64,000 bases of DNA from Candidatus Eiseniibacteriota bacterium (GCA_031370645.1 JANMQV010000152.1:16144-80143); one strand, 5' to 3'. Shown: positions 22,431-54,116, counted from the first letter of the stretch. The notes: generated by a model from the letters alone, not told the origin. A program made the numbers and translations.

Positions 22431-22452
22431 TTCCCGGTGGTAAAATAGAAGG

Positions 22453-25249: not shown

Positions 25250-25392
25250 TAGGTCACAACTGCAGACATCCTTCGGGGCGGGGCGCAAGTCCCCACCGGC
25301 GGTACAGCCCGCGAGCCTGGGACCTTGGTCCTCGGCAGATCCGGTGCAACTCCGGAGCCGACCGTTACAGTCGGGATGGAAGAAGGATGCAA
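25250..25392 (+). ncRNA. FMN riboswitch (RFN element)
   Basis: Conserved FMN-aptamer blocks in order: CUUCGGGGCGGGG-GCAAGUCCCCACCGGCGGUA-AGCCCGCGAGC-GGCAGAUCCGGUGCAACUCCGGAGCCGAC-GU-AGUCGGGAUGGAAGAAGGAU. Lies immediately upstream of ribD. Confidence 0.85.
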
Positions 25393-25430
25393 CGTTCGTC
25401 GGCGTTCGCGGCGTTAGACCGCGTGTGCCC

Positions 25431-25457
25431 CGCGGGTGTCTGCCTGCGGGGTTTTTC
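25431..25457 (+). terminator. riboswitch expression-platform terminator hairpin (CCCCGC...GCGGGG + UUUUU)
   Basis: GC stem CCCCGCGG/CCTGCGGGG followed by TTTTT, about 40 nt after the aptamer. Typical FMN-dependent intrinsic terminator. Confidence 0.6.
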
Positions 25458-25542
25458 TATGCGGCTCGAGTCCGGGGCGGCGCGCGACGCGGCCCTCATC
25501 CACGAATCATCCGGCGGCGTTTCGGCGGCCGAGCGAACCGCG

Positions 25543-26634: not shown

Positions 26635-27259
26635 CGGGATCGTGGAGCGCGTCGGGACCATCGAGCGTCGCGCCGAATCGAACGCGGGCGTGAGTTTTCA
26701 CGTGCGCGCCGGGTTCGACCCCGCGCCGGCGCCCGGAGCGAGCATCGCGGTGCACGGCGTCTGCCTCACCGTCGAGCGCGCCTCCGAGGGAGCCTTCGAC
26801 GTCACGGCGGTCGCGGAGACGCTCCGCCGGACGAATCTCGGCGCGCTCACGGAGGGCGCCCGCGTGAATCTCGAACGCGCGCTTCGCGTGGGGGACGAAA
26901 TCGGCGGGCACTGGGTACAAGGGCACGTCGACGGACTCGGCACGGTGGCGGCGGTGGAGACGCGAGGCGGTGACGTGCGCGTCGCGATTGAAACGCCGGC
27001 GCCGCTCCGGCGTTATGTGGCCGAGAAAGGATCGATCACCGTGGACGGCATTAGCCTCACGGTCGCCGCTTGGGAGGATCCGCGCCTCGTCGTGGCGCTG
27101 ATTCCGTACACGCTCGAACAGACCACCGCGTCGGCCTGGCGCCCGGGAACGCGAGTGAACCTTGAAGTAGACGTCGTGGCGCGTTACCTGGATCGCCTCC
27201 TCGCGGCACGCGCGGGCGAGGCGGAGGGCGCTGCCGCGCCGCAGACGGAGGCATCGTGA
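26627..27259 (+). CDS. ribE: riboflavin synthase alpha chain
   Basis: [11 protein letters not shown]-terminus and the duplicated lumazine-binding halves (GxSLTV motifs). GTG start overlaps the ribD end. Confidence 0.9.
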
Positions 27260-28575
27260 ACCGGGAGTCGAAGCGCAAGAACGGAGCGGGACCGCGGGGC
27301 CGCAAAGCCTCGGCGGGGGACGGCGTCGGAAAGATCGACGACGCGCTCCGCGCGCTCAAACGGGGCGAGATGGTCGTCGTCGTGGACGACGAAGACCGGG
27401 AGAACGAAGGCGACTTCGTGATGGCCGCCGAGAAGACGACGGCCGACGACGTGAATTTCATGACGCGAGAGGCGCGCGGACTCCTCTGTGTCTCGTTGCC
27501 GGGTGAGCGGCTGGAGCAATTGGGCCTCGGGCTCATGGCGCCGGCGAATACCGCTCGGTTCGCGACACCCTTCACCGTTTCGGTCGATCTCCTGCAAGGC
27601 ACGACATCGGGTTCCTCCACGCGGGATCGCGCGCTCACGATTCGCGCCCTCGCTTCGGCCAAGACGAAGCCGGAAGCGCTCGCGCGACCGGGGCATGTCT
27701 TCCCGCTCAAGGCGGACGACCACGGCGTGCTCCGCCGTCCGGGGCACACGGAGGCGGCGCTCGACCTCGCGCGGTTGGCGGGGCTTCGACCGGCCGGCGT
27801 GCTCTGCGAAATTCTCGCGGCCGACGGCACCATGGCGCGGGGCCCCGAATTGATCCGGATCGCGAAGAAGCACGGCATGGTTCTCATCACCATCCGCGAC
27901 CTCGTTCGCTACCGCTATCAGCGGGAGCGGCTCGTGAAGCGCATCGCTTCCTCGCGCCTTCCGACGAAGCACGGCATCTTCCGGGTCGTCGTCTATGAAA
28001 GCCCGCTCGACGGCGCGCACCATGTGGCGCTCGTCAAGGGAACGCCCTCCGCCTCGCGAGCCGATGTGGTTCGTCTTCATTCGCAATGCCTCACCGGCGA
28101 CGTCTTCGGCTCGATGCGCTGCGATTGCGGCGAGCAGATGGTGGCGGCGCTCGAACGGATCGAAGAAGAAGGGGCTGGCGCCTTCCTCTACCTTCGCCAA
28201 GAAGGGCGGGGGATCGGGCTCGCCAACAAGCTCCGCGCGTACGAGCTTCAAGACATGGGGCTCGACACGGTGGAAGCGAACGTCCGGCTCGGCTTCGCGC
28301 CCGATCTCCGCGACTACGGCATCGCGGCGCAGATCCTGCGCGACCTCGGCTATGAGAAAGTGCGGCTCCTCACGAACAATCCTCAGAAGGTCGACGCGCT
28401 CCGCGACTACGGCATCGCCGTGGAGGAGCGAGAGCCGATCGAGATCCTCCCGAATTCGGTGAACGAGCGATATCTCCGGACGAAGCGGGAGCGGATGGGG
28501 CACCTCTTGAAGAATCCGCTCCTTCGCGAAGCGGCCGCCGCGCACGGGAACGGCCGACGGGGACGGGGCGCGTGA
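27256..28575 (+). CDS. ribBA: bifunctional 3,4-dihydroxy-2-butanone-4-phosphate synthase / GTP cyclohydrolase II
   Basis: DHBP synthase motif ([15 protein letters not shown]) and the GTP cyclohydrolase II zinc motif ([15 protein letters not shown]). Confidence 0.9.
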
Positions 28576-29114
28576 GCCCGGTTCGTCCGCTCGGCCGACG
28601 GGGAGGGGAAGTCTTTTCCGTCCCTCGCGGTGCGCGGCTATTCGTCGGGAATCCCGCCGCTGGGCGGGGACTTCGCGTCGCGATCGTCGCGTCCCGCTTC
28701 AACGACCGGATCACGGCTCGGCTTCTCGAAGGCGCGTTCGGCGCGCTCGAGGCGGCCGGTGTTCGCGCGAAAGACCTGGCCGTGACGTTCGTGCCCGGGG
28801 CATTCGAACTTCCGTTCACGGCCCGAACCCTGGCGGCCTCGCGGCGCTACGACGCGATCGTCTGCTTAGGAGCCGTCGTTCGGGGCGGCACGCCCCACTT
28901 CGACTACGTGGCGGGCGAGGCGTCGCGCGGGATCGCGCGCGCTTCCGAGGGGACCGGCGTTCCGGTTCTCTTCGGCGTGCTGACGACCGACAACGAGCGG
29001 CAGGCGCTCGACCGCTCCGGCGGCCGGCTCGGAAATCGCGGAGCCGACGCGGCCCGCGCCGCGATCGAGATGGCGCAGGTCGCCCGGCAGCTCCGGGGAA
29101 GGAGACGAGCATGA
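28572..29114 (+). CDS. ribH: 6,7-dimethyl-8-ribityllumazine synthase
   Basis: Lumazine synthase fold ([27 protein letters not shown]). Confidence 0.9.
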
Positions 29115-29527
29115 CCTCCCGCCGGCAGGGACGAGAACTCGCCTTTCGCGCCGTCTATCAGGCGGACGTGACGGGGGAGACCCCGAACCATTGCCTCGAG
29201 GAGATTCTCGAAGAGACGCCCTCCTCGGACGAAATTCGCCTCTTCGCCGCCACGCTCGTGTCGGAATTGGAGGAACATCGCGACAACGTCGACGCCATCG
29301 TCTCACGGACGGCTCATAATTGGCCGCTTCGCCGCATGGCCGCGACCGACCGCTCCGTGATCCGCGTGGCCGTCGTGGAACTGCTCCATCACGCGGAGAC
29401 GCCGACGCGGGTCGCCCTCGACGAAGCGATCGAAATCGCGAAGAAATACGGCTCGGAAACGTCGGGATCGTTCGTGAACGGAATCCTTGACCGAATCGCC
29501 CACGACGAGCGACCCTCCGCGGGATGA
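29111..29527 (+). CDS. nusB: transcription antitermination factor NusB
   Basis: NusB family (RELAFRAVYQ...). Canonical position after ribH. Confidence 0.85.
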   Translation: MTSRRQGRELAFRAVYQADVTGETPNHCLEEILEETPSSDEIRLFAATLVSELEEHRDNVDAIVSRTAHNWPLRRMAATDRSVIRVAVVELLHHAETPTRVALDEAIEIAKKYGSETSGSFVNGILDRIAHDERPSAG

Positions 29528-30249
29528 TCACCGTTTTCCTGTCCGACATTCACGGCAATCTCGAGGCGCTCCAGGCGGTCCTCGCGGCCGTCGACACCTA
29601 CGCACCCGACCGGATCGTCTGCCTCGGCGACGTCGTCGGCTACGGCGCGAGCCCGAACGAGTGCCTCGACCTGGTTCGCTCCCGCTGCAAGACCGTTCTC
29701 CTGGGCAATCACGACGCGGCGGCGAGCGGTGGGCCGGAGATCGCCCGGTTCAATATCCACGCGCGGGTCGCCGCCGAGTGGACGAGCCGTGTGCTGACTC
29801 GGGAGAACCGCGAATTCCTCCAGCGCCTCCCCCTCACGTTCGACGGGAACGGCTTTCTCTGCGTCCACGCCTCGCCGGCCACGCCGCGCGATTGGGAGTA
29901 CCTGCTCGATCGCTTCGACGCCGAGCCGCAGTTCGCCTACTTCAACGTGCCGGTCTGCTTCATCGGGCATACGCACCAGCCGGCGATTTTCATGGCCGAT
30001 CCGGCGGGGTGCCGCTCGCTCCCGGTCGGATCGCTCTCGCTCGACCCACAACGCCGCTACATCGTGAACGTGGGGAGCGTCGGCCAGCCGCGCGACCGCG
30101 ATCCTCGCGCCTGCTTCGTGGTCTATCACGAACTGGCGAGTCGCATCGAATACGTCCGCGTCGCCTATCCGGTCGAGTTGGCCCAGGAACGGATCCGAGC
30201 CGCGCGTCTTCCCGAGGTCCTGGCCACCCGCCTCGCCACGGGGGAATAA
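29524..30249 (+). CDS. metallophosphoesterase (calcineurin-like, YfcE/MJ0936 family)
   Basis: DIHGN, GDVVGYG and GNHD motifs of the calcineurin-like phosphoesterase fold. Confidence 0.75.
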   Translation: MITVFLSDIHGNLEALQAVLAAVDTYAPDRIVCLGDVVGYGASPNECLDLVRSRCKTVLLGNHDAAASGGPEIARFNIHARVAAEWTSRVLTRENREFLQRLPLTFDGNGFLCVHASPATPRDWEYLLDRFDAEPQFAYFNVPVCFIGHTHQPAIFMADPAGCRSLPVGSLSLDPQRRYIVNVGSVGQPRDRDPRACFVVYHELASRIEYVRVAYPVELAQERIRAARLPEVLATRLATGE

Positions 30250-30250
30250 C

Positions 30251-31054
30251 GTGGCGCCCCGCGCTTCCACCGAAGAACACTGGAATCGATTCTGGACCGA
30301 ACGCGCCGATATCGACGCGGTCTATCCGACGGACGGCCGCGTGGTGGAACAGATCGTGGCCGAGGGCTCGGTGGCGGGGAAGCGGATCATGGAGGTCGGT
30401 GCGGGATCGGGGCGCGACAGCGTGCGGCTCGCCGCTGCGGGCGCCACGGCCGTGATCCTCGACTACTCCGTCCCCTCCCTCGAGACGGCGCGCCGCGTCG
30501 CCGAACGGGAGGGAGTCCGCGCGCACTTCGTCCGCGCCGACGCGCTCCGGCTCCCGTTCCGCGATGGGGCGTTCGACGTCGTCTTCCACCAGGGATTGCT
30601 GGAGCACTTCCGCGATCCGGCGCCGCTCCTTCGCGAGAATGTGCGCGTCCTGGCGCCCGGCGCGCTCCTCTTGGTCGACGTTCCGCAGCGATTCCATCTC
30701 TATACCGTGGCGAAGCACGTCCTCATCGCCATGGGGAAGTGGTTCGCCGGCTGGGAGACAGAATTCTCGATCGGAGAGCTGGAGCGCGCCATGCGAGGGG
30801 CCGGCGTGAGGATCACGAGCCGCTACGGCGCGTGGATGATTCCCGGCCTCTTCTACCGCGGACTCCGCCTCGTTCTCTTGAAGTTTGGTCTGGCGCGGCT
30901 TCCGCTCTACCCGCCGCCCGTGCCGATCGTCACGCCGGTCTCGCGGGCGCTCCGCCGCGCGTGGGAGCAAACCCCCTTCGCGATCCACACCTACTTCGTG
31001 ATCGGAGCGCTCGGCCGGAAGGATGGCGGCGGGGCGACGCCGCGCCGCGCTTGA
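30251..31054 (+). CDS. class I SAM-dependent methyltransferase (Methyltransf_11/25 type)
   Basis: EVGAGSGRD motif I, acidic end of strand 2 (ILDYS), motif post I/II (FDVVFHQGLLEHF). Confidence 0.7.
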   Translation: MAPRASTEEHWNRFWTERADIDAVYPTDGRVVEQIVAEGSVAGKRIMEVGAGSGRDSVRLAAAGATAVILDYSVPSLETARRVAEREGVRAHFVRADALRLPFRDGAFDVVFHQGLLEHFRDPAPLLRENVRVLAPGALLLVDVPQRFHLYTVAKHVLIAMGKWFAGWETEFSIGELERAMRGAGVRITSRYGAWMIPGLFYRGLRLVLLKFGLARLPLYPPPVPIVTPVSRALRRAWEQTPFAIHTYFVIGALGRKDGGGATPRRA

Positions 31055-32172
31055 GAATCGTCGCCCTGAACTGGCGCGATCCGCGGCACCCGGAAGCGGG
31101 CGGCGCCGAACTCCACCTTCTCGAGATCCTCAAGCGCTGCGTTCGCGACGGCGATCAGGTCACCTGGCTCGCCGAAGCATTCCCCGGCGCCGCCGCCGAG
31201 GACGTGGTGGAGGGCATCCGAATCGCTCGCGCGGGCACGTGGTACAATGCCCACCTTGCCCTCGGAGCGCTCTATCGCGCACGGTATCGGAGGGAGCGCG
31301 TCGATTTGGTGCTCGAGGACATCAACAAGGTGCCGTTCTTCACACCGCTCTTCGCGCGCGCCCCGGTGCTCGCGGTGGTGCCTCACCTCTTCGGCGCAAC
31401 CGTCTTTCGCGAGGCACCGATTCCGGTCGGCGCCGTCGTCTGGGCCCACGAATCACTCCTCCCCTTCGTCTACCGACACACTCCCTTTCTCGCCATCTCC
31501 GACAGCACTCGTGAGGATCTCGTCCGCCGGGGAATCGCGCGCGAACGGATCTCCGTCGTCCGCTGCGGGCTCGATCAGAGCGCCTATGCCGTCACGATGC
31601 CTCCCGAGGCGCGCGGCCCTGTTGTGGCGTTCCTGGGGCGACTCCGAAAGTACAAGGGAGCGCAGTTCGTCCTCCGCGCCTTTCCCGCGGTCCTCGCGGC
31701 GGTCCCCGAGGCTCGCCTCGACGTGATCGGCGACGGACCCTATCGCGCGGAGCTCGAGCGGCTCGCCAACCGACTCGGCATCGCGTCGCGCGTTCGGTTT
31801 CTCGGCGCGCTCTCGCACGCGGCCAAGGTGGCCGCCTTGAACGAGGCGCAGGTCGCGACCTGCCCCTCGCCCAAGGAAGGGTGGGGACTCACCGTCATCG
31901 AGGCGAACGCCTGCGGTGCCCCGGTCGTGGCGAGTCGAAGTCCCGGTCTCGTGGAATCGGTCCGCGACGGCGAGACGGGACTCCTCGTCCCGCATGGAGA
32001 CGTCCCGGCGCTGGCCGCCGGCATCACGCGGCTCCTTCGCGATCGCTCGGAGCGGCTCCGGATGGCGGAGGCGGGAAGTCGCTGGGCCGCGACGTTCGAT
32101 TGGGAGACCTGTTATCGCGAGAGCCGCGCCTGTTTCGCGCGCGCGGCGGCGTCGCGGGGAGCGGCCGCGTGA
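31051..32172 (+). CDS. glycosyltransferase family 4
   Basis: GT-B fold with the C-terminal GT4 signature (EGWGLTVIEANACGAPVVASRSPGLVESV). TTG start overlaps the preceding stop. Confidence 0.75.
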   Translation: MRIVALNWRDPRHPEAGGAELHLLEILKRCVRDGDQVTWLAEAFPGAAAEDVVEGIRIARAGTWYNAHLALGALYRARYRRERVDLVLEDINKVPFFTPLFARAPVLAVVPHLFGATVFREAPIPVGAVVWAHESLLPFVYRHTPFLAISDSTREDLVRRGIARERISVVRCGLDQSAYAVTMPPEARGPVVAFLGRLRKYKGAQFVLRAFPAVLAAVPEARLDVIGDGPYRAELERLANRLGIASRVRFLGALSHAAKVAALNEAQVATCPSPKEGWGLTVIEANACGAPVVASRSPGLVESVRDGETGLLVPHGDVPALAAGITRLLRDRSERLRMAEAGSRWAATFDWETCYRESRACFARAAASRGAAA

Positions 32173-33218
32173 CGCCGCGCTGGGGCGAGTTCTTCAAGCG
32201 CTACAAACTTCTCCTCGTGGGGGTGAAGATCGGGCTCTCCCTCGCGCTCTTCGCCTACGTCGTGGCGAAGGTTTCGCCCGGAAACGTCTGGGCGGTGGTC
32301 CGCCACGCCAATCCCACCTATCTCGGCGCCGCGGCGGCGCTCTTCGTCTTCTCGAATCTGGTCGGTTCGTGGCTCTGGGCGAGGCTCCTGCGCGCGCAGG
32401 GGGTGAACATCCCGTATCGAAACGCGGCCGCTTACTATTTCGTCGGCCTCTTCTTCAACAATTTCCTCCCGTCGAACATCGGCGGCGACATCGCGCGGAT
32501 CAGCGACGCCTCGAAGCACGCGACGAACGTCAGTTCGGTGTTCTCCGCCACGCTCATGGATCGGCTCCTCGGCGTCGTTTCGATCGCGCTCCTCGCCGTC
32601 ATCGCGTCGTTCGCCTCGCTCGATCGGTTCCACCTCTACGCCATCTACGGCGGAATCGTGCTCGTCTTCGTCACCTCGCTCGCGCTCTTTCTCAGCATTT
32701 TCCACCGCGGGGTGTTGAAGGCGTTCGAGTGGCCGTTCCGTGTGCTGGGGCTCCGAAAGGTAGAGGAGGGGATCGGACGCCTGCTCGACGACCTCCACGG
32801 GTTCCGGAACGAGAAGGCGGCGCTCCGGGCGGCGTTCCTGGCCAGCTCGCTCGTGCAGATCAGCCGGATCTATGTCCATTACCTGGTTGGCCTTTCCCTG
32901 GGAGTCCAGCTCGCGGCGGGGTACTATTTCCTCTTCGTGCCCGTTTTGGCCGCCCTGGTCTCTCTTCCGATTTCTATGAACGGACTCGGGATCCGGGAGG
33001 GGGCGTCGGTGGTTCTATTTCAGATGGCCGGGCTGACGCGGGAGCAAGCGTTCACGATCCCGTTCGTCACCTATCTCATGTCGGTGTTCATCAGCCTTCT
33101 CGGCGGTTTCATTTTCGTCACGCGGTCGCCTCGTCGCGCCTTGGCTCGGAAACTCGAAGCGAGACGGGAGAAGCGGGCGGAGAAAGCCGCCTCCATCGGT
33201 AGGGAGGACTCTCGGTGA
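32169..33218 (+). CDS. flippase-like membrane protein (lysylphosphatidylglycerol-synthase TM-region family, UPF0104)
   Basis: Eight or so TM helices with the conserved NFLPSNIGGDIAR-type motif of the LPG_synthase_TM / TIGR00374 family. These often sit next to Dpm1/GtrB-like GT2s in glycosylation loci. Confidence 0.55.
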   Translation: MTPRWGEFFKRYKLLLVGVKIGLSLALFAYVVAKVSPGNVWAVVRHANPTYLGAAAALFVFSNLVGSWLWARLLRAQGVNIPYRNAAAYYFVGLFFNNFLPSNIGGDIARISDASKHATNVSSVFSATLMDRLLGVVSIALLAVIASFASLDRFHLYAIYGGIVLVFVTSLALFLSIFHRGVLKAFEWPFRVLGLRKVEEGIGRLLDDLHGFRNEKAALRAAFLASSLVQISRIYVHYLVGLSLGVQLAAGYYFLFVPVLAALVSLPISMNGLGIREGASVVLFQMAGLTREQAFTIPFVTYLMSVFISLLGGFIFVTRSPRRALARKLEARREKRAEKAASIGREDSR

Positions 33219-35809
33219 ATTCATGGAAGCGCTGGCACGCGATCTTCGGCGCGCTCGCCTTGGGCGTACCGCTCTTCGTGTTCCTTCGCACGCTCACGGT
33301 CACGGTCCCGTTCTGGGATTCGGGCGAGTACATCGCCACATCCCGCATTCTCGGCCTTCCGCACCCGCCGGGGAACCCGGTCTACACGATGCTCGGGCGC
33401 ATGCTGACGCTCATCCCCATCGCGAGCATCGCCCAGCGCGTGAACTTCATGAGCGCCCTCGCGTCGGCGCTGACCTGCTTCTTCACCTATCTTGTCGTGG
33501 TCCGCGCGCTTCGCCGCACGTTCGAGGATCGCTTCGAGTCGGGCGCCGCCTGGGTCGCCTGCTTGGTTGGAGGATTGACGGCCGCGTTCTTCGTCGCGTT
33601 CTCCTCGTCGTTCTGGGACAGCGCCATCGAAGCCGAAGTCTATTCGCTCTCCTCGGCGCTCATCGCCTTTACGATGTGGCTCGCGTTCCGCTGGTGGGAC
33701 CGCCTCGATCAGCCGGGGAACGACAAACTGCTGATCCTCGTCACGTACATTCTCGGAGTCTCGACGGGCGTTCACCTCGGCACGATCCTCGTGGCGCCGG
33801 GGCTCCTGTTCCTTCTCGCGCTCATCCGTCCGACGATCTTCACGTCGGGCCGTTTCTGGGCTTCCGCGCTCCTCCTCCTCGGCACCCTCGCGTTTCTCGG
33901 GATCACGGAGGCTTCGGGCTGGAGTCCGCCGCTTCTGGTGCTCATCCTCCTCATCGGGGGTCTCGCCGCCTTTCTCATCTCGCGACGCGACCGGCTGGTG
34001 CGCGACAACCTGGCCACCTGGTGGGCGCTCGCGGTGCTGGTCGGATTTTCGGTGCAGCTCTTCCTTCTCATCCGTAGCCAGCAGATGCCGGCCATCAACG
34101 AGGGAAGCCCCTCCACGTTCGAGGCCTGGAAGGACTATCTCCTCCGGAAGCAGTACGGTCCGTCGAATCCGTTCGATCGCCGCGCCGACCTCTGGTTCCA
34201 GATCACGCACATGTACTTCCGCTACGTCGGGGAGCAGTGGAAGATCATCAACAAGATCGGCTCCCTGGACATCCAATCGTTCTGGGTTCGCCTCGTGAAC
34301 ATGCTTCCCTTCGCTCTCGCGTTCCTCGGGGCGTGGTGGAACGCCCAGCGCGACAAGAAGACCTTCTGGTTCTTCGTCGCGCAAAACGTCATCATGGCGC
34401 CCTTCCTGATTTTCTATCTCAATTTCACCGACCACGAGGTGCGGGAGCGCGACTACTTCTTCACCAACTCCTACCACTTCATCGCCATCTGGATCGGAAT
34501 GGGGGCCGCCGCGCTCCTCCATTCGGTCGTGGAGGCGATCGCGCCGGCGGGAGCGAGGGCCGCGCCGCCGCCGCGCCCGGCCGCCGCCCTGGCGGAAGGG
34601 GCGGGGAGTTCGGAGCCGGGGCCGCTTCCGGCCGCGCCGGCTGCCGCCTGGATCGTCGGCATCGCGCTCATCGGCTTCTCGGCGCTGCCGGCTCGCGCCG
34701 GATGGTTCGAGCACGACCGGTCGAATTTCTGGATCGCGCAGAACTACGCCTACAACATGCTCGCCCCGCTCGCGCCGAACTCGATCGTCATGACGAATGG
34801 CGACAACGACACCTTCCCGCTCTGGTACATCCAGGAGGTGGAAGGATTCCGGAAAGACATCCGAGTCGTGAACATGAGCCTCCTGAACACGCCCTGGTAC
34901 ATCCTCCAGTTGAAGAATCTCGAGCCGAAGGTCCCCTTCAGTTACACCGACGCGGAGATCGAGAAGCTCTACCCCTACCTCGACGAAAAATCGGGGCAGG
35001 TCGTCTGGGTGAAGGACCTCGCCGTGAAGAACATGATGGCGGCGAACGCCTGGAATAAGCCCGTCTACTTGGCCGTCACCGTTCCCGATCAGATGGGGAT
35101 GGACAAGCAACTGACGCTCGAGGGGCTGGTCTATCGGATCTCCCCCCAGCCCGTCACGAACGAGATCGATCTCAACCGGACCATGAAGAACCTCTACGAG
35201 GTCTTCAGATATCGCGGGCTCCTTGACGCGAATCGGAATTTCGACAAGGCGGTGTATAAGGACGATAACGCGATGCGCCTGGTGCAGAACTATTCGGCGG
35301 CGCACGTCCAGGTGGCCTATCAGCTCCAGTCGCAGCAGCGCCCGGCGGAGGCGATCAAGGTTCTCGAGGACGCGCGGAAGATCTCTCCCGACTTCCCGGG
35401 TCTGCTCGAATATCTGGGCCGTCTCTACGACCAGACCGGGAATCCAGCGAAGGCGGAGGCGTACTACCGCGAGGGCCTGGAGCGATTCCCGAGTTCGCCC
35501 GAGTTCTACTTCCATCTCGGCACGCTCGCCTACCGGCAAGGCAAAGTCGACGAGGCCGTGCAACTCCTCCGCCGCGCGACCGAGCTGAGCCAGCAATACT
35601 TCGATTGGTACAGCGCGCTCTTCACGGTCCTCTGGCAGACGGGGCAGAAGGCGGAAGCGATCGATGTCCTCCGCAACTGGCTCCGCGCCCATCCCGAGGA
35701 TCAGCAGACGTCGGAGGAGATCAAGCGCTTCGAGGATTCGCTCCGGACCGCTCCGCCGGGATTGCAGGACAAGTTGCGAACCTCCGGCTCGCGGGCCTTG
35801 GTTCGTTGA
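33215..35809 (+). CDS. DUF2723/TMEM260-like GT-C-fold membrane glycosyltransferase candidate with C-terminal TPR repeats
   Basis: Polytopic N-terminal half with the FWDSGEYIATS...LGLPHPPGNPVY signature recalled for DUF2723 (PMT/ArnT-related GT-C). A roughly 40-aa Ala/Pro linker. The C-terminal soluble region has TPR repeats (AEAYYREGLERFPSSPEFYFHLGTLAYRQGKVDEAVQLLRRA). Confidence 0.55.
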   Translation: MNSWKRWHAIFGALALGVPLFVFLRTLTVTVPFWDSGEYIATSRILGLPHPPGNPVYTMLGRMLTLIPIASIAQRVNFMSALASALTCFFTYLVVVRALRRTFEDRFESGAAWVACLVGGLTAAFFVAFSSSFWDSAIEAEVYSLSSALIAFTMWLAFRWWDRLDQPGNDKLLILVTYILGVSTGVHLGTILVAPGLLFLLALIRPTIFTSGRFWASALLLLGTLAFLGITEASGWSPPLLVLILLIGGLAAFLISRRDRLVRDNLATWWALAVLVGFSVQLFLLIRSQQMPAINEGSPSTFEAWKDYLLRKQYGPSNPFDRRADLWFQITHMYFRYVGEQWKIINKIGSLDIQSFWVRLVNMLPFALAFLGAWWNAQRDKKTFWFFVAQNVIMAPFLIFYLNFTDHEVRERDYFFTNSYHFIAIWIGMGAAALLHSVVEAIAPAGARAAPPPRPAAALAEGAGSSEPGPLPAAPAAAWIVGIALIGFSALPARAGWFEHDRSNFWIAQNYAYNMLAPLAPNSIVMTNGDNDTFPLWYIQEVEGFRKDIRVVNMSLLNTPWYILQLKNLEPKVPFSYTDAEIEKLYPYLDEKSGQVVWVKDLAVKNMMAANAWNKPVYLAVTVPDQMGMDKQLTLEGLVYRISPQPVTNEIDLNRTMKNLYEVFRYRGLLDANRNFDKAVYKDDNAMRLVQNYSAAHVQVAYQLQSQQRPAEAIKVLEDARKISPDFPGLLEYLGRLYDQTGNPAKAEAYYREGLERFPSSPEFYFHLGTLAYRQGKVDEAVQLLRRATELSQQYFDWYSALFTVLWQTGQKAEAIDVLRNWLRAHPEDQQTSEEIKRFEDSLRTAPPGLQDKLRTSGSRALVR

Positions 35810-35816: not shown

Positions 35817-36770
35817 ATGCGCGCGCTCGTGACGGGGGCGGCTGGATTCATCGGTTCGAGCCTCGTCGACGCCCTGCTCGAATCGGGGGTGGAGGTGATC
35901 GGCTTCGATGCGTTCACCGGCAATTACGATGCGACGCGGAAACGGGCGAATCTGGAAGGCGCGCTCGGCCGGCGCGGATTCCGGCTCGTGGAGGGGGATC
36001 TCCGCCACGCCTCGCTGGCTCCGCTCCTCGAGGGGACGACGCACGTTGTCCATCTCGCGGCGCTTCCCGGCGTGCGCGCCAGCTGGGGCGAAGCGTTTCG
36101 CGACTACGCCGAACACAACGTGGTCGGCACGCAGCGGCTCTTGGAGGCGGTGCGGGCGTCGGGCCGCGTGGAGCGGCTCGTGGCCGCGTCGAGCAGCAGC
36201 GTCTATGGCATGCCGCGGCGCTTTCCCACACCGGAGGATGAACCGCCGCGTCCGCTCTCGCCCTACGGCGTGACCAAGGTGGCGACCGAGTCCCTTCTGC
36301 AATCGTATCGGGCCTCGTTCGGCGTGCCGGCGGTGGCCCTTCGTTATTTCACGGTGTACGGACCGCGCCAGCGCCCCGACATGGGGATCCATCGCTTCTT
36401 CGAGGCGGCTCGGGCGGGGAAGCCGGTCACCCTGTTCGGAGACGGAAAGCAGACCCGCGACTTCACGTTCGTGGAGGACGCCGTTCGCGCGACGGTGGCG
36501 GCCATGACGCGGCCCGCCCCCGAACCGGCGTACAATGTCGGCGGTGGGCATCGCGTCTCGCTCGGCGACCTCCTCGACTCGATCGCGGGCGTCGCCGGCA
36601 AGCCGGTCGCGCGCCGCCATGTGGAGGCGCAAGCGGGCGATCCGCGCGATACGTCGGCCGACACGACGCTCGCGAGGCGCGATCTCGGTTACGCGCCTGC
36701 GACGGCGCTCCTCGACGGACTCCGGAGGCAATGGGAATGGCAGCGGAACTTGGCGGCGGCGCCGGCGTGA
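35817..36770 (+). CDS. NAD-dependent epimerase/dehydratase (UDP-sugar 4-epimerase-like SDR)
   Basis: TGAAGFIGS Rossmann motif and the YxxxK catalytic dyad (SPYGVTK). Extended SDR family. Confidence 0.85.
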   Translation: MRALVTGAAGFIGSSLVDALLESGVEVIGFDAFTGNYDATRKRANLEGALGRRGFRLVEGDLRHASLAPLLEGTTHVVHLAALPGVRASWGEAFRDYAEHNVVGTQRLLEAVRASGRVERLVAASSSSVYGMPRRFPTPEDEPPRPLSPYGVTKVATESLLQSYRASFGVPAVALRYFTVYGPRQRPDMGIHRFFEAARAGKPVTLFGDGKQTRDFTFVEDAVRATVAAMTRPAPEPAYNVGGGHRVSLGDLLDSIAGVAGKPVARRHVEAQAGDPRDTSADTTLARRDLGYAPATALLDGLRRQWEWQRNLAAAPA

Positions 36771-37702
36771 GCGCTCCCCCGGTCGATCTCACGGTGCTCA
36801 TCCCCGCCTATAACGAGGCGGAGAACATCCGCCCGCTCCTCGAGAAGCTGGTGAAGGACGTCGCACCGCTCGGCCTGTCGACGGAGATCATCGTCCTCGA
36901 CGACGGCTCGACCGACGGCACGCTCGACGCGGTACGCGCGCTTCGCGGCATGATCCCGGGGCTCCACGTGATTTCGTTCCGCCGCAATTTCGGCAAGTCG
37001 GCCGCTCTCTCCATCGGCTTTCGAGAGGCACAGGGGCGCTTCGTCGTCACGATGGACGCCGATCTCCAGGACGATTCGGCGGAGATCGGGCCGCTTCTTC
37101 GAAAGATCGACGAGGGATTCGATCTCGTCTCCGGTTGGAAGCAGAAGCGGAAGGACCCGATCATGAAGACGGTGCCTTCGAAACTCTTCAACGGCGTCAC
37201 CGCGCGGATGACCGGCGTCTCGCTCCACGACATGAACTGCGGGCTCAAGGCCTATCGCGCCGACGTGGTGAAGACCGTGAAGCTCCGGGGCGAACTCCAC
37301 CGCTTCATTCCGGTCCTCGCGCACTGGAACGGATTTCGAGTCTCCGAGATTCGGACCGTCCACCATCCGCGCCTTCATGGCACGACGAAATTCGGCGCGT
37401 CGCGCTTCCTGAACGGATTCCTCGATCTCCTCGCCGTCATGTTCATGACGACCCAGAGCACGCGGCCGCTCCATCTCTTCGGACGGCTCGGCATCCTTGT
37501 CGCCTTCGTGGGAGGGTGCGCCACGCTCTGGGCCTCCTGGCCCTGGTTCCTGGGAGAGGGGCTTCGCCTCCGGCCGATGCTCGTCTTCGGGCTCGTCCTC
37601 ATCGTGCTCGGCATCCAATTCCTCTCCCTCGGCTTCCTCGGCGAATTGATCGCCGGGACGCGCGCCGCGGATCCCGACTACCCGGTTCGGGAGCGCTTCT
37701 AG
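36731..37702 (+). CDS. GT2 polyprenol-phosphate sugar synthase (GtrB/ArnC/DPM1-like, with C-terminal TM anchor)
   Basis: VLIPAYNEAENI, LDDGSTDGT and the DADLQDD DxD region, plus two C-terminal TM helices. This is the GtrB/CsbB architecture. Confidence 0.75.
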   Translation: MGMAAELGGGAGVSAPPVDLTVLIPAYNEAENIRPLLEKLVKDVAPLGLSTEIIVLDDGSTDGTLDAVRALRGMIPGLHVISFRRNFGKSAALSIGFREAQGRFVVTMDADLQDDSAEIGPLLRKIDEGFDLVSGWKQKRKDPIMKTVPSKLFNGVTARMTGVSLHDMNCGLKAYRADVVKTVKLRGELHRFIPVLAHWNGFRVSEIRTVHHPRLHGTTKFGASRFLNGFLDLLAVMFMTTQSTRPLHLFGRLGILVAFVGGCATLWASWPWFLGEGLRLRPMLVFGLVLIVLGIQFLSLGFLGELIAGTRAADPDYPVRERF

Positions 37703-37742: not shown

Positions 37743-38900
37743 ATGGCGCCCATGAAGGTGGCGCTCCTCGGACCGACCTATCCGCACCGCGGCGGGATCG
37801 CGCACTACACGACACTCCTCTCCCGCGCGTTCGCCGAACGGATCGGCGCCGACTCGCTTTCGATGGTTTCCTTCAGCCGGCTCTATCCGGGGCTCCTCTT
37901 TCCGGGCACCACGCAGTTCGATGAGAGCGGCGAGGCGCTGAGGCCCCCGGTCGAGCCGGCGGCGATGCTCGACAGCATCGCGCCGCACACCTGGTTCGCG
38001 GCGGGAAAGCGGCTGCGCGAGGCGAAGGCCGATCTCCTGGTCGTTCCGTGGTGGCATCCCTTCTTCGGTCCTTCGCTCGGCGTGGCCGCTCGCGCCGCCC
38101 GGCCGCGCGGCGCGGCGGGACCGAAGCGCGTCTTCCTCTGCCACAACGTGGAGCCGCACGAAGCGACACCGCTCGATCGCGCCCTCTCCGCCTATGGACT
38201 CGGCGCGGCCGACGGCTTCCTCGTGCACGCGAGGGCTGAGGAGGCGCGGCTCAAGCGTCGCGCCGACGGGCGACCGATCCGCGTCCATCCTCATCCGACC
38301 TACGAAGTCTTCAGCCGCACCCCGCCCAGCCGCGACGCCGCTCGCGCGACGGTCGGCGCGCGCGGGAAGACGATCCTCTTCTTCGGTTACGTCCGGACCT
38401 ACAAGGGACTCGCCGATCTCCTCGAGGCGCTTCGCCTCGCGCGACCCGATGCCTGGGATACGCTGCTCGTCGTCGGGGAGTTTTATGAATCGCGCGACCG
38501 TTATGCGACCGCGCTGGACGATCCGGCGCTCCGGGGGAAGGTGACGGTCGTCGATCGCTACGTGGCGAACGAGGAAGTCGCGACCTACTTCGCCGCGGCG
38601 GATGTCGTGGCGCTTCCGTACCGCTCCGCCACCGGTTCGGGAATCGCGCAGGTCGCTTACGGTGCCGGCGTGCCGGTGATCGCGACGAGGACGGGTGGAT
38701 TGGAGGAGGTGGTGGAAGAGGGGAGGACGGGGCTCCTCGTGCCGGCGGAGGATCCCGCGTCGTTCGCCCGCGCCGTGGAGCGCTACTTCGACGGCAACCT
38801 CGCCGCGCCGCTCCGCGAAGGAGTGGCGCTCGCGAGGGAACGCTACAGCTGGGGCGCGCTCGTCGAGGCGTTGCTCGATCTGGCGCGGGAGTGTCGGTGA
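37743..38900 (+). CDS. glycosyltransferase family 4
   Basis: GT-B fold. C-terminal GT4 region (SATGSGIAQVAYGAGVPVIATRTGGLEEVV). Confidence 0.75.
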   Translation: MAPMKVALLGPTYPHRGGIAHYTTLLSRAFAERIGADSLSMVSFSRLYPGLLFPGTTQFDESGEALRPPVEPAAMLDSIAPHTWFAAGKRLREAKADLLVVPWWHPFFGPSLGVAARAARPRGAAGPKRVFLCHNVEPHEATPLDRALSAYGLGAADGFLVHARAEEARLKRRADGRPIRVHPHPTYEVFSRTPPSRDAARATVGARGKTILFFGYVRTYKGLADLLEALRLARPDAWDTLLVVGEFYESRDRYATALDDPALRGKVTVVDRYVANEEVATYFAAADVVALPYRSATGSGIAQVAYGAGVPVIATRTGGLEEVVEEGRTGLLVPAEDPASFARAVERYFDGNLAAPLREGVALARERYSWGALVEALLDLARECR

Positions 38901-41041: not shown

Positions 41042-42211
41042 GTGATTGCGGAGGCGGCCGTGCGTCCCACGTGGGATGTCGTATGGGTGAGTGACATCCC
41101 GTGGTCGGCCCTCTGGCAACGGCCGCAGCAGTTGGCGACCCGCTTCCCCGAGGACGTCCGGATCCTATTCGTCGAGCCATGGACGCTCGGCGCGCCCCCT
41201 GCATGGTCTCCCGAGGAAGTGGCGCCGCGGATCGCGCGGATTTCATTCCCGTTTCTGCCGCTCCATGCCCGGGATCTCCGGCTTCGCCGCTTGGCGTATC
41301 GCCTCGGCTCGTCGGCTCCCGCCACCTCGATGCTCTTCGCCGCGCAGCGACTCTGGGCGAGGCGTTGGCGCGGCTTCGGCCGGCAGGGCGCCCGTCGCCT
41401 CGTGCTGGCACAGAATTTCATGGCCACGCCGTTCCTCGAAGCGTGGCGTCCCGATCGGATCGTCTACGACATGATCGACGCGCCCCTTCACTTCGCTCCG
41501 GTGCCGCCGCGGCTCGTGCCGCAGTGGCAAGCGCTGCTCTCCCGCGCCGATCGGGTGATCGTCACGTCGGAGGCATTGGTGTCGCTCGCGAAGTCGGGAG
41601 GTGCGACGGCGCCGGCCTTGATCGGGAACGGCGTCGAGGCGGACCGATTCGATCCTAACCGCGTGACGCCGGCCGTGCTCCCTGGGAATCCCGAAGCGCC
41701 GGCGTTCGGATATGTTGGCTCGCTACATTCGTGGTTCGATCTCGAGTTGGTGGCGGCGCTCGCCGAAGCGATGCCCGAATCGCGCGTGGTGCTGGTCGGC
41801 CCCGCGCCCCCCGAGACGGCCGCGGCGTTGGAGCGGCTGATGACCTCTCGGCCGAATCTTCATTGGATGGGACCGCGGCCCTACGTGGAAGTGCCCGCGC
41901 TCGTTCGGGCCTTCCGCGTCGGCCTCATCCCGTTTCGCCGCACCCCGCTCACGGAGGCGGTGAATCCCGTGAAGCTCTACGAGTACGCCGCGGCAGGCGT
42001 TCCGACGGTGACAACTCGATTCAGTGACGAAGTCGAGGGTTGGAGCGACGCGGCGCGCGTGGCCGACGGCCCCGAAGCATTTCTCAGCGCGTGCCGGGAC
42101 GCGGCGGCCGCACCGCCCGATGTCGCGTCGCTTCGCGCGTTCGCGAGGCGGCACGATTGGGAGGCCATTGCCGCGCGGTTCGTCGCGGCCAGTCTGGAGG
42201 AGGCGGCGTGA
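41042..42211 (+). CDS. glycosyltransferase (GT-B, group 1-like)
   Basis: C-terminal half has group-1 GT features (GYVGSLHSWFDLELV, PVKLYEYAAAGVPTV). N-terminal half is divergent. Confidence 0.6.
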   Translation: MIAEAAVRPTWDVVWVSDIPWSALWQRPQQLATRFPEDVRILFVEPWTLGAPPAWSPEEVAPRIARISFPFLPLHARDLRLRRLAYRLGSSAPATSMLFAAQRLWARRWRGFGRQGARRLVLAQNFMATPFLEAWRPDRIVYDMIDAPLHFAPVPPRLVPQWQALLSRADRVIVTSEALVSLAKSGGATAPALIGNGVEADRFDPNRVTPAVLPGNPEAPAFGYVGSLHSWFDLELVAALAEAMPESRVVLVGPAPPETAAALERLMTSRPNLHWMGPRPYVEVPALVRAFRVGLIPFRRTPLTEAVNPVKLYEYAAAGVPTVTTRFSDEVEGWSDAARVADGPEAFLSACRDAAAAPPDVASLRAFARRHDWEAIAARFVAASLEEAA

Positions 42212-44628
42212 AGCAGTCGTTGGGCTGGCGGTGGGCGTACGGAGCGACGGCGCTGCTCGTGCTTGTCTTCTTCTACCCGATCGTCTTCGGCAAGGTCTTC
42301 CTCTCGCCGGACTCGGTCGCCCCCGCGGGCTTCTCGAAGATCGCCTTGGAAGCCCTCACGCAGCGCGGCGTCTACGCGCTTTGGAATCCATATCACTTCC
42401 TCGGAATGCCGTCGTTCGGGAGTCTCGCCCACGTCCCGTTCGTCTATCCGCCCGACGTCATCTTTGGATTTCTGAACCAGAATCTCGGATTCCCCGATCT
42501 CACGTGGCTCATCGCGCATTACCTCCTCCTCGCCGTGAGCATGGTGGCGCTCTTGCGGGCGCTCGGTGCGGGCCCGGAAGCGGCCGCCATCGGGGCCACG
42601 ACGCTCGCGCTGACTCCGAATCTCGTGGCGGTCGGGGCGTTCGGACACGGCAGCCAGATCATGACGGCCGCTTACCTGCCGCTCCTCTTTCTCCTCTACG
42701 ATCGCTACGCGCGGCGAGGCTCGCTCCTCGCGCTCTCCGCCTTCGCGCTCGCCGCCGCGTTCCAACTGCTGCGCGGACACGTGCAGATCGTCTTCTACAG
42801 CTGGTTCGCGCTCGGGCTCTACGCGCTATTCCTCTCCGTGGCGGCCTTCCGCGAGGGACGGCGGCCGGACGGGATTCGTGCCCTGGTGGGGCTCGCGACG
42901 GGCCTGGGGCTCGCCTTCGGGATGAGCGCCTTCCTCTACCTGCCCATTCGCGACTACGCCGAACACTCGGTGCGAAGCGCCGGCGCGGGCGGGGGCGCCG
43001 GATTCGAGTACGCCACCTCGTGGTCGTTCGCCCCGCGGGAGATGCTCACCTTCCTCATTCCTTCCATGTTCGGTTTCGGCGGGCAAACCTACTGGGGAGC
43101 CATGCCGTTCACCGACTATCCGAATTACATGGGGATCATTCCGTTCGCGCTCGCGCTCTACGCCGCCGTCACGCTCCGGGGGACGATGCGCGCGTTTCTC
43201 GTCACGCTCGCCGGCGTTTCGCTCCTCATCTCGTTCGGCAAGCACTTCGCGCCGCTCTACGCGCTCCTCTACGACCACCTGCCGTTCTTCAACAAGTTCC
43301 GCGTGCCGGTGATGATTCTCGTCCTCGTCCAATTCGCCACGGCGGCGCTCGCGGCGTTGGGGATCGACCGGGCGATGAGGATGCCCGAGGCGGGGAAGCG
43401 CACCGGGGCCGCCGCGGCCGCGGCGACGACCGCCGCGGCGGGGCCGTGGTGGCGCGCCTGCGCCATGGCCATCGGCGGAGCCATCGGCGGGATCGCGCTC
43501 TTCCAGGCGTTTCGCCCGTCGCTCGAAGCGGCAGCCGCGTCGAGTCGCGCGAACATGAATCAGGGGCTCGCGCGTCTCGCGCTCGACATGGCCTCGATCG
43601 ATCTCCTCAAGTCGGGGATCCTGCTCGCGTTCGGCTTCGCCGCGATCGCGCTCTACCGGTCCGGCCGGGTGGGGAAGAGCGTGGCGGCGGCAGCGCTCCT
43701 CTTGATCACCGCGGGCGACCTCTGGACCCTCGACCGGCGGATCATGGATCCGCAGGTCGGGACGAAGCGCGAGTACGCCGACTACTTCGCCGAGTCGCCG
43801 GAGGTGACCTTCCTTCGCGGCGATTCGACGCAGTTTCGCGTCCTCCCGACGGCGTGGAACGACGCGCGCCTCGCCTCCTTCGGTGTGGCGTCGGTGCTCG
43901 GCTACCATCCGGCGAAACCGCGGCTCTACCAAGCCTTCATCGATACGATCGGGATCAACAGCATGGAAACGCTCCAAATGCTGAACACAAAGTACGTCTT
44001 GTCCGATCGGTACTTTCCCGCCGACATGCAGGGGCTCCGGCTCCGGTTCGACGGAAAGGTGAAGACGTACGAGGTGGACGGGGCGTTGCCGCGGGCGTAC
44101 GTGGTCCATCATCTCTACCCGGTTCGCGACGAGTCGATGGCGCTCGCCGCCATTCGCGCGCACGGGGTCGATCCGCGGCTGGAGGCGGTCTGGACGAAGC
44201 CCGACCCCCTCCCGACCCTCGCCAACCCGTCGCTTCCCGATTCGGTGCGGCTCCTCCTCTTCGATTTCAACGAGGTGGAATACAGCGTCTCCACGAACGC
44301 GTCCGGTCTTCTCGTGACGATCGATCAGTGGGATCCCGACTGGAGCGTCACGGTGGACGGGAAGGCAGCCGACCTGGAGCGCGTGAATTACCTGATGCGC
44401 GGCGTGTTGATCCCCGAGGGGGTCCACATCGTTCGGTTCCACTACATGCCGCGAGCGCTCGAGGCGGGCATCCGAATCTCGGCGGCCTCCCTGGCGCTCA
44501 CGATCTTGCTGGCGGGATTGGGGCTCGTGACGGGGCGCCGGCGCCGCGCGATGCCGCCTGCCGCCACGGACGATTCGCCCGCGGCGGCGCACGCGTCCGC
44601 GGAGAAGCGAAAGGGGAAACGCGCGTGA
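42208..44628 (+). CDS. YfhO-like polytopic membrane protein (GT-C-fold glycosyltransferase candidate)
   Basis: About 807 aa: roughly 14 TM helices in the N-terminal 450 aa, then a large soluble C-terminal domain and a final TM helix. Overall architecture is that of the YfhO family. A Dpm1-like GT2 gene follows immediately (GTGA overlap). Confidence 0.5.
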   Translation: MKQSLGWRWAYGATALLVLVFFYPIVFGKVFLSPDSVAPAGFSKIALEALTQRGVYALWNPYHFLGMPSFGSLAHVPFVYPPDVIFGFLNQNLGFPDLTWLIAHYLLLAVSMVALLRALGAGPEAAAIGATTLALTPNLVAVGAFGHGSQIMTAAYLPLLFLLYDRYARRGSLLALSAFALAAAFQLLRGHVQIVFYSWFALGLYALFLSVAAFREGRRPDGIRALVGLATGLGLAFGMSAFLYLPIRDYAEHSVRSAGAGGGAGFEYATSWSFAPREMLTFLIPSMFGFGGQTYWGAMPFTDYPNYMGIIPFALALYAAVTLRGTMRAFLVTLAGVSLLISFGKHFAPLYALLYDHLPFFNKFRVPVMILVLVQFATAALAALGIDRAMRMPEAGKRTGAAAAAATTAAAGPWWRACAMAIGGAIGGIALFQAFRPSLEAAAASSRANMNQGLARLALDMASIDLLKSGILLAFGFAAIALYRSGRVGKSVAAAALLLITAGDLWTLDRRIMDPQVGTKREYADYFAESPEVTFLRGDSTQFRVLPTAWNDARLASFGVASVLGYHPAKPRLYQAFIDTIGINSMETLQMLNTKYVLSDRYFPADMQGLRLRFDGKVKTYEVDGALPRAYVVHHLYPVRDESMALAAIRAHGVDPRLEAVWTKPDPLPTLANPSLPDSVRLLLFDFNEVEYSVSTNASGLLVTIDQWDPDWSVTVDGKAADLERVNYLMRGVLIPEGVHIVRFHYMPRALEAGIRISAASLALTILLAGLGLVTGRRRRAMPPAATDDSPAAAHASAEKRKGKRA

Positions 44629-45338: not shown

Positions 45339-45349
45339 CCCGCGCGCCC

Positions 45350-54093: not shown

Positions 54094-54116
54094 ACGGACC
54101 GACGGGGAACGGAGCG

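Follow-up and report, generated by a model that had tools for sequence, protein, structure and literature searches.

A TMEM260-family membrane protein with C-terminal TPR repeats and its putative donor-supply operon in Candidatus Eiseniibacteriota

The stretch of DNA described here, referred to throughout at its full length as the window, comprises 64,000 nucleotides of one strand from a Candidatus Eiseniibacteriota bacterium (GCA_031370645.1 JANMQV010000152.1:16144-80143) and carries on its plus strand, at 33215..35809, an open reading frame (ORF) of 864 codons that begins with GTG as read from the window. Judged by its sequence the product, called the target in what follows, is a member of the TMEM260 (DUF2723) family, the human member of which has been solved (9RQL/9RQM/9RQN) and serves as the reference for residue numbers. 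The parts of the target and the signal that precedes it are as follows.

33201-33208, plus strand: Shine-Dalgarno-like AGGGAGGA, 6 nt before the GTG of the target, read from the sequence
33215..34708 (aa 1-498), plus strand: membrane GT-C core, 11-13 transmembrane (TM) helices, N-terminus cytoplasmic
33317..33364, plus strand: first periplasmic loop, 'sugar-recognition motif' with D35 and H50, from phmmer and profile alignments to 9rql
34145..34156, plus strand: R311 and Y314 of the donor-loading loop, from the profile alignment, equivalent to human R264 (phosphate) and Y267 (sugar)
34448..34450, plus strand: R412 in the EVRERDYF motif, from the profile alignment, equivalent to human R355
34709..35230 (aa 499-672), plus strand: periplasmic Rossmann-like domain, five beta-strands, from the alignment to 9rql 414-486
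34802-34804, plus strand: D530 in TNGDNDTFPLW, aligned with the human catalytic base D441
35231..35749 (aa 673-845), plus strand: TPR domain, ten helices in about five repeats

The start codon overlaps the stop of an upstream flippase-like gene (GTGA), and the ORFs neighbouring the target abut or overlap in the fashion of an operon. The GC content of the target is 0.87 at third codon positions and 0.43 at second positions, as is expected of a real coding gene in a window of 68% GC. An ENA metagenome contig carries a called protein (P0001) that is 100% identical to the 864-aa translation, which together with the ORF itself bears out the gene as it was first called from the sequence. The closest named relatives are found in metagenome-assembled genomes of Candidatus Eisenbacteria, where they are labelled 'DUF2723 domain-containing protein' or 'protein O-mannosyl-transferase family'; the gene is therefore already annotated as TMEM260/DUF2723 in public records, and the family is already modelled in Pfam. 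More than 550 homologues of the target were found, and its TPR-free part matches 14,830 cluster representatives (50% identity, mostly 770-1000 aa in length) at E<=1e-3 and 1,034 at E<=1e-30, numbers that place the observation far beyond chance.

Membership of the TMEM260 family, proposed in the original prediction from a FWDSGEY-type segment, rests on several searches. The segment itself is present at aa 31-57 as VPFWDSGEYIATSRILGLPHPPGNPVY, the PFWDSGEY...LGLPHPPGNPVY stretch occupying aa 32-57. PF11028 (TMEM260-like/TMEM260_N, formerly DUF2723) matches aa 35-202 with E=1.2e-48 and 165.7 bits, against a cut-off of 24.2, spanning profile positions 1-171 of 179, and it is the sole significant family on aa 1-672; PF28495 (TMEM260_2) is a precomputed match both on the identical protein P0001 and on relatives. 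A significant DUF2723 profile match was the check that the original prediction had named beforehand. Several TPR families of Pfam lie above their cut-offs at approximately aa 670-840. Used as a single sequence against the PDB the target finds human TMEM260 (9RQL/M/N) with E=8e-18 in an alignment split in two, in which target aa 502-575 pair with human residues 414-486. As TPR matches swamped the other PDB matches, a TPR-free alignment of nine diverse homologues (A2) was made, and the profile built from it, when searched against the sequences of the whole PDB, has human TMEM260 (9rql) as its sole match (E=3.7e-30). Profile positions 12-507 are aligned without a break to human residues 29-486, a stretch that takes in the entire membrane core and extends into the luminal domain. 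A profile in which the TPRs were kept proved unusable, with TPR proteins outranking TMEM260.

A likeness to TMTC- and PMT-type O-mannosyltransferases had also been suggested, and of this only the architectural part stands, namely a TPR array that follows a GT-C core. PMT, PMT_2 (PF13231) and DUF1736 (PF08409) have no match on aa 1-672 of the target even at E<=10, and membership of either family was rejected on these grounds; nor does the target carry the PMT (PF02366) and MIR domains by which PMT/POMT (GT39) enzymes are recognised. TMTC and PMT proteins resemble the target in fold and overall layout only, and TMTC is an architectural analogy. The Pfam scan of aa 1-672 likewise reveals no sequence relationship to the ArnT/GT83 families, and there are no STT3 or PglB motifs or Pfam matches on the target.

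Human TMEM260 was recognised as a protein O-mannosyltransferase as late as 2023. Its structure and mechanism were reported in 2026 (bioRxiv 10.64898/2026.03.17.711096), and from that work D52 and H67 in the first luminal loop position the donor sugar and are required for activity, R264 and Y267 of the donor-loading loop contact the phosphate and the sugar respectively, R355 in TMH10 makes a further sugar contact, and D441 on the Rossmann-like luminal domain is the general base; mutagenesis showed all six to be required or important, and the same cryo-EM and mutagenesis study shows an acceptor peptide bound in extended form by the TPR domain (bioRxiv 10.64898/2026.03.17.711096). In the alignments to 9rql these six residues fall on D35, H50, R311, Y314, R412 and D530 of the target, each of which is invariant (60/60) in an alignment of homologues that reaches down to ~40% identity (A1). 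On this alignment the target retains every residue known to matter for catalysis in the human enzyme. The surrounding motifs PFWDSGE, HPPG, EVRERDYF and TNGDNDTFPLW are equally invariant across the 60 homologues and recur across several phyla; among 84 related loci from several candidate phyla NGDNDT is found in 78 and EVRERDYF in 82, the latter count being partly by construction as the motif was one of the search patterns. The region of the catalytic base (aa 530-532, 34802-34810) reads NGDND in the target as opposed to RGDLP in human TMEM260, and the extra acid, D532, is again invariant, so that D530 and D532 form a DxD-like pair. D532 might bind a metal, or else a basic or amino group of the substrate.

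An AlphaFold2 model of the target, built from the 60-sequence alignment, has a mean pLDDT of 86.2 and a pTM of 0.85 and is divided into a helical membrane core (aa 1-500), a beta-strand domain (aa 500-670) and ten TPR helices (aa 684-845). The middle domain contains five strands by DSSP (524-527, 550-553, 617-620, 633-635 and 639-642), and in the model these strands with their flanking helices match the description of the human Rossmann-like 'palm'. When the full-length model is compared with the PDB by Foldseek, TPR proteins dominate and STT3B is the sole GT-C protein among the top 50. The GT-C proteins tabulated with the structural comparison, with figures that carry no label, are ALG12 (21.5), STT3B (21.0), Pmt4 (20.6), Pmt2 (20.3), PglB (20.1), AftB (19.9), ArnT (19.6) and AglB (18.9).

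Hydropathy reveals 11 clear hydrophobic spans within aa 1-498, in keeping with the polytopic N-terminal part that had been described, and the C-terminal 366 residues are soluble and contain the TPR matches, also as described. Counting helix 141-162 and the kinked 171-204 segment as spans shifts the total (11 or 13) and leaves the parity unchanged, and parity is also preserved by a two-helix insertion at approximately aa 214-262 (33854-34000) that is missing from shorter (~750-aa) homologues. The loops rich in lysine and arginine (97-110, 205-213, 256-267 and 374-383) all lie on one side, which is cytoplasmic by the positive-inside rule, and the loops with D35, R311/Y314 and R412 lie on the opposite side, as do all of the C-terminal 366 residues. 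An Ala/Pro-rich cytoplasmic loop at aa 446-472 (34550-34630) has a pLDDT below 50 and varies in both length and sequence among relatives. Since the uncertain helices do not affect parity, and since it shares a side with the catalytic loop, the TPR domain is predicted to be periplasmic, from the positive-inside rule and from homology to the solved human enzyme; topology was the second check named in the original prediction, and it came out on the periplasmic side. A cytoplasmic TPR domain was considered and rejected, since R412 and D530 have to be on the side of the D35 and R311/Y314 loops, opposite the one marked by the lysine- and arginine-rich loops.

The target is one gene of a tightly packed, same-strand series that runs in the order FMN riboswitch, ribD, ribE, ribBA, ribH, nusB, metallophosphoesterase, methyltransferase, GT4 glycosyltransferase, flippase-like gene, target, epimerase, GT2 glycosyltransferase and a second GT4; beyond this lie further glycosyltransferases, a YfhO-like protein and other glycan genes to ~51.6 kb, and then the dcw cluster. 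The members that matter for the argument are as follows.

25265-25391, plus strand: FMN riboswitch (Rfam, 118 bits), preceding ribD-ribE-ribBA-ribH-nusB
30251..31054, plus strand: methyltransferase dependent on S-adenosylmethionine, Methyltransf_11 8.9e-21
31051..32172, plus strand: GT4 glycosyltransferase, 373 aa on the identical contig, Glycos_transf_1 1.1e-39
32169..33218, plus strand: flippase-like membrane protein (LPG_synthase_TM/TIGR00374/'PplT'), 349 aa, PF03706 1.6e-41
35817..36770, plus strand: SDR epimerase, UDP-glucuronate 4-epimerase-like, 317 aa, ATG 7 nt past the target stop
36737..37702, plus strand: GT2 polyprenyl-phosphate glycosyltransferase (ArnC/GtrB/PgfS type), NF007986 ArnC 4.4e-47 over its full length
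37743-38900, plus strand: GT4, the cluster member after the GT2
42208..44628, plus strand: polytopic protein with a weak YfhO-family match, PF09586 7.8e-09, confined to the C-terminal ~70 of the model's 835 positions

A neighbouring GtrB-like polyprenol-phosphate-sugar synthase, placed ~900 nt downstream in the original prediction, is indeed present: the GT2 starts at 36731/36737, ~925 nt past the target stop, and besides its ArnC match it is hit by the PgfS model (2.4e-38) and matches ArnC 8vxh (6.5e-47) and GtrB 5ekp (3e-33) in the PDB. Its two C-terminal TM helices (aa 249-271 and 284-302) are typical of polyprenyl-phosphate sugar synthases. The SDR has as its best PDB matches BcUGAepi of Bacillus cereus (6zl6, 1.3e-75; 6zlj is the Y149F variant) and MoeE5 (7.8e-64), with GalE-type enzymes far lower. 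In the alignment to BcUGAepi the residues Y149, K153, S127, S128, T178 and R185 are conserved, T126 is replaced by Ser, and a GPRQRPDM stretch is identical; R185 is the carboxylate-binding arginine of UDP-glucuronate 4-epimerases (PMC12338863). The SDR is accordingly predicted, from sequence, to have a UDP-glucuronate 4-epimerase-like activity. Mannose, the sugar named for TMTC enzymes in the original prediction, is not supported as the one that the target moves, and the operon context points to a uronic acid instead. No small flippase of the GtrA or ArnE/F type is found among the genes annotated in the cluster; the gene that adjoins the target instead encodes a protein with at least 6 TM helices and a TIGR00374 match above cut-off (2.1e-22), a member of the MprF-flippase ('PplT') domain family. 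The YfhO-like protein has ~12 hydrophobic segments.

From 25400 to 33218 the rib-nusB genes are followed by the glycosylation genes on the same strand, as abutting or overlapping ORFs with no convincing terminator, and a scan for promoters and terminators over 27-45 kb yielded no more than chance. The FMN riboswitch is the sole Rfam match in the window, and no tRNA genes turned up there. For the GT4 at 31051-32172 there are weak MshA/BshA-like matches that are far below cut-offs, and a homologue of BshC (bacillithiol biosynthesis; PF10079 1.7e-82) lies at 5225-6895 on the plus strand. Long ORFs occur on both strands at 45101-47323 and 51348-52964, where the coding strand is ambiguous (45101-47302 plus as against 45290-47323 minus), and a 539-aa minus-strand ORF among them has no Pfam match. 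The dcw cluster (53973-64000, plus strand; mraW, ftsI with PASTA, murE, an unannotated gap at 59.1-60.6 kb, mraY, murD and ftsW) begins ~2.3 kb after the last gene of the glycan cluster, which ends at 51651.

With so many glycosyltransferases at hand it could be asked whether the target acts as an oligosaccharyltransferase or ligase that transfers en bloc a glycan, built on undecaprenyl diphosphate by the GT4 and GT2 enzymes of the cluster, to a protein or other carrier. This would seem improbable, as its donor site has the residues with which TMEM260 holds a monosaccharide linked to a monophosphate, the STT3 and PglB signatures are missing, and no initiating phosphoglycosyltransferase is found among the annotated cluster genes (30251-51651), the only one found being MraY in the adjacent dcw cluster.

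The arrangement of genes around the target is conserved. Three contigs from Eisenbacteria, in which the homologue is 61%, 42% and 40% identical to the target, keep the order of the window from ribD to the GT2, and the first GT4 holds the same position, directly before the flippase-like gene, in loci L001, L002 and L004. A scan of one genome per species found relatives in at least 594 genomes, of which the best 80 loci were kept; these come first from Eisenbacteria, Krumholzibacteriota and bins labelled Latescibacterota, Omnitrophota, Verrucomicrobiia or Fibrobacteraceae, and then from Cloacimonadota, Zixibacteria, Gemmatimonadota, Ignavibacteria and Glassbacteria. Nearly all of the 80 bear labels of metagenome-assembled genomes or uncultured isolates. 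Neighbours were counted by tblastn of the window's neighbouring proteins against the kept loci, using only those with enough flank. For relatives of at least 32% identity an ArnC-like GT2 is encoded no more than 8 kb downstream in 45/46 loci and the epimerase is downstream in 42/49; upstream are found the flippase-like gene (40/53), the methyltransferase (44/49) and nusB (41/45), and a YfhO-like gene lies downstream in 14/26. The linkage of the rib-nusB genes to a TMEM260-like gene persists in Eisenbacteria, Krumholzibacteriota and even in Fibrobacteria-like bins (L057, L065, L071 and L084). The family of the target, its fold, the six conserved functional residues, its operon partners and their linkage across relatives are established.

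That the target might be a catalytically dead scaffold, or a TPR adaptor that merely resembles a glycosyltransferase, would be in keeping with the lack of direct activity data for bacterial members of the family, yet we regard it as very remote, given six validated residues and long active-site motifs that are invariant in 60 homologues and recur across several phyla, and a tight operon link to a donor synthase.

From the above we propose, with middling confidence, that the target is an inner-membrane GT-C enzyme of the TMEM260 family with a periplasm-facing active site, which uses a polyprenyl-phosphate-sugar made by its own operon and glycosylates Ser/Thr of an exported protein. Its catalytic activity, the identity of its sugar, the role of the flippase and the class of acceptor are inferred, and the pathway would run as follows. 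The adjacent SDR would convert a UDP-sugar, most likely UDP-glucuronic acid to UDP-galacturonic acid (UDP-GalA), after which the ArnC/GtrB-type GT2 would load the sugar (GalA) onto undecaprenyl phosphate at the cytoplasmic face. The lipid-linked monosaccharide would then be flipped, possibly by the upstream flippase-like protein, and would enter the tunnel of the TM core, where D35, H50, Y314 and R412 would hold the sugar and R311 the phosphate. An acceptor hydroxyl held by the TPR and Rossmann-like domains would be deprotonated by D530, the general base, and would receive a single sugar in an inverting transfer. As regards the acceptor, Ser/Thr of exported proteins are favoured because the only characterised member of the family glycosylates extended peptides and because the target has retained both the base on the extramembrane domain and the TPR clamp; by this analogy the acceptor may be expected to be a Ser/Thr that lies in an extended stretch of such a protein, an expectation that we hold no more firmly than its opposite.

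Several observations weigh against this proposal, and a first group concerns the donor. Amongst relatives below 32% identity a GT2 is nearby in only 2/16 loci, from which it follows that the coupling to the GT2 is a property of a clade and not of the whole family. In locus L002 (40% identity) the epimerase is replaced, at 11229-12934, by a HddC/ManC-like nucleotidyltransferase (6e-43/6e-34) and a HddA-like kinase (1.3e-91, below cut-off), and no epimerase was detected in L003, L010, L026 and L041; the sugar is therefore not fixed. This suggests that it differs between lineages whilst the pair of GT2 and GT-C stays, and L002 hints at a different sugar, perhaps heptose-like, delivered by an otherwise identical cassette. 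The YfhO-like protein, as a second GT-C, could moreover be the real user of the GT2 product. In that case the GT2 and the epimerase would serve the YfhO-like protein, and the TMEM260-like enzyme would draw on another donor made elsewhere in the genome (such as undecaprenyl-phosphate-mannose). There is one clear polyprenyl-phosphate-sugar synthase for two GT-C proteins, the YfhO-like gene shares the cluster in the window and, among relatives with enough flank, in 14/26, pairs of a GtrB/CsbB-type GT2 with YfhO are established in Firmicutes (PMC12041528), and distant TMEM260-like relatives mostly do without a neighbouring GT2. We nevertheless consider this arrangement unlikely: it is the target that the GT2 and epimerase abut, the YfhO-like gene being ~4.5 kb and four genes further; the linkage of the target to the GT2 (45/46) is far tighter than that to YfhO (14/26); and the two are not exclusive, as one donor could feed both GT-C proteins. 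The target had been put forward as the best single candidate for a protein-directed glycosyltransferase in the window, and whilst it is a candidate, the ranking is arguable, since the YfhO family of the second GT-C in the same cluster includes proven bacterial protein O-glycosyltransferases; in streptococci the YfhO-type PgtC2 and PgfM1 have been proven as such by experiment (PMC12041528).

A second group of observations concerns the acceptor. The human IPT sequon, P-x5-P-x3-G-P-x2-[GA]-G-G-x2-[ST], has no match, even in looser versions, in a six-frame search of the window and of 1.3 Mb of 84 related loci, and nothing convincing was found among the window proteins in the way of Ser/Thr-rich disordered regions like those of streptococcal substrates. 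Two candidates for exported proteins lie upstream, an unusually long 1006-aa SurA-like protein with parvulin peptidyl-prolyl isomerase domains (17610-20630, plus strand) and a 927-aa protein whose sole Pfam match is a C-terminal FlgD_ig (22444-25227, plus strand), which might serve as a tag for secretion or sorting; in both, Ser/Thr-rich regions and the IPT sequon are absent. Apart from N685 and N692, nothing in the TPR helices obviously resembles the conserved asparagine ladder that binds peptide in the human protein. The cluster is rich in cytoplasmic GT4 and GT2 enzymes, and the GT4 and flippase-like pair just upstream of the target follows the logic of a glycolipid or lipoglycan pathway. 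In the literature searched, finally, no published characterisation of a bacterial TMEM260/DUF2723 member was found, the results for PF11028 being Plasmodium gene names.

These observations lend themselves to the strongest rival, in which the chemistry is the same and the acceptor is not a protein but a lipid-linked glycan, a glycolipid, or lipopolysaccharide (LPS) or lipid A. The upstream GT4 would make a glycolipid, the PplT-type protein would flip it, and the GT-C would add GalA from polyprenyl-phosphate-GalA in the periplasm with the TPRs acting as a scaffold, which would parallel LpsL/RgtE/RgtA-D of Rhizobium, ArnC/ArnT, or PimA/Ppm1/PimE of mycobacteria. An ArnC-like GT2 together with a uronic-acid epimerase recalls the RgtE/Rgt and Arn systems that decorate LPS. 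The gpgSDF operon has the layout found upstream of the target, a GT4 and after it a PplT-type flippase (PMC12713373). On the other side, peptides are the substrate of the one family member that has been characterised, a base on an extramembrane Rossmann-like domain beside a peptide-binding TPR is conserved in the target (D530 and the TPRs), the target is unrelated in sequence to the ArnT/GT83 families, and the GT4s of the cluster reach only 35-60 bits where the model for N-acetylglucosaminyl-phosphatidylglycerol synthase has a cut-off of 480. A lipid acceptor is thus a possibility to be taken seriously, though we would not expect it. Returning to a protein acceptor, its fullest form would be a TMEM260-type protein O-glycosylation in Eisenbacteria and Krumholzibacteriota, in which a single GalA (or another lineage-specific sugar) instead of mannose passes from undecaprenyl-phosphate-sugar to Ser/Thr of unfolded proteins as they enter the periplasm, and which would be both a hitherto undescribed kind of bacterial protein O-glycosylation and the prokaryotic ancestor of the metazoan pathway, its donor-supply genes still joined to it in one operon; this we put forward as speculation, and doubt it more than we believe it.

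Comparison with known systems places the locus between several of them. The gpgSDF operon, which makes glucosaminyl-phosphatidylglycerol, consists of a GT4, a deacetylase and a PplT-type flippase (PMC12713373), and the window likewise has a GT4 gene followed directly by a UPF0104/LPG_synthase_TM (PplT) flippase-like gene; it differs in having no deacetylase, in GT4s that are far below the cut-off of the GpgS model, and in that the pair belongs to an operon with a GT-C and a polyprenyl-phosphate-sugar synthase. The pair at 31051-33218 might synthesise a glycolipid and flip it; this glycolipid could be the acceptor of the GT-C or have nothing to do with it.

The ArnC/ArnT and Rhizobium LpsL/RgtE/RgtA-D systems share with the target locus an ArnC-like GT2 beside a GT-C and, in the case of LpsL, a UDP-glucuronic acid 4-epimerase-like enzyme. 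In these systems a polyprenyl-phosphate-monosaccharide is flipped to the periplasm as donor and LPS is decorated. The GT-C of the window, by contrast, is not of the ArnT/GT83 type by sequence and carries Rossmann-like and TPR domains, and nothing except this analogy would indicate LPS as its acceptor.

A precedent for the proposed pathway is offered by the streptococcal Pgf and GtrB/PgtC2 systems. These systems, which O-glycosylate Ser/Thr-rich regions of exported proteins through PgfE, PgfS/GtrB and the GT-C proteins PgfM1/PgfM2 or PgtC2 (PMC12041528), have the same set of parts: a 4-epimerase (PgfE), a GtrB/ArnC-like undecaprenyl-phosphate-sugar synthase (PgfS) and an extracytoplasmic GT-C. 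They differ from the target locus in that their GT-C proteins are of the YfhO family and have no TPRs, their sugars are glucose and N-acetylgalactosamine, and their hosts are monoderm. TMTC1-4 (GT105) resemble the target in carrying a C-terminal luminal/periplasmic TPR array after the GT-C core, in architecture only; both they and PMT/POMT (GT39) are set apart by the absence from the target of any PMT, PMT_2 or DUF1736 match and of a MIR domain, and the TMEM260 lineage is distinguished from them by a proposed catalytic base on its Rossmann-like domain.

Bacterial relatives of TMEM260 form a large uncharacterised family, and yet in the target the catalytic apparatus of the human enzyme is complete. 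Should its acceptor be a protein it would represent a new bacterial O-glycosylation system, a possible tool for glyco-engineering and a clue to the origin of the animal pathway; should it be a lipid, proteins would not be the only substrates of the TMEM260 fold. For now the finding amounts to a well-supported annotation rather than a new kind of system; it adds a residue-by-residue match with the solved human enzyme, a donor-supply operon that is conserved, and a sugar that is probably not mannose. It is indeed human TMEM260, the protein O-mannosyltransferase for IPT domains, to which the target is closest: both have PF11028 and PF28495, both follow the order GT-C core, Rossmann-like domain and TPR, and in both the extramembrane domains lie on the non-cytoplasmic side. 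The target differs from it in a longer TPR domain (~ten helices as opposed to five), in two extra TM helices (~aa 214-262) and the Ala/Pro-rich cytoplasmic loop, in a donor carrier that must be a bacterial polyprenyl phosphate and, unlike the situation in animals, in being encoded together with a plausible pathway for the synthesis of its donor.

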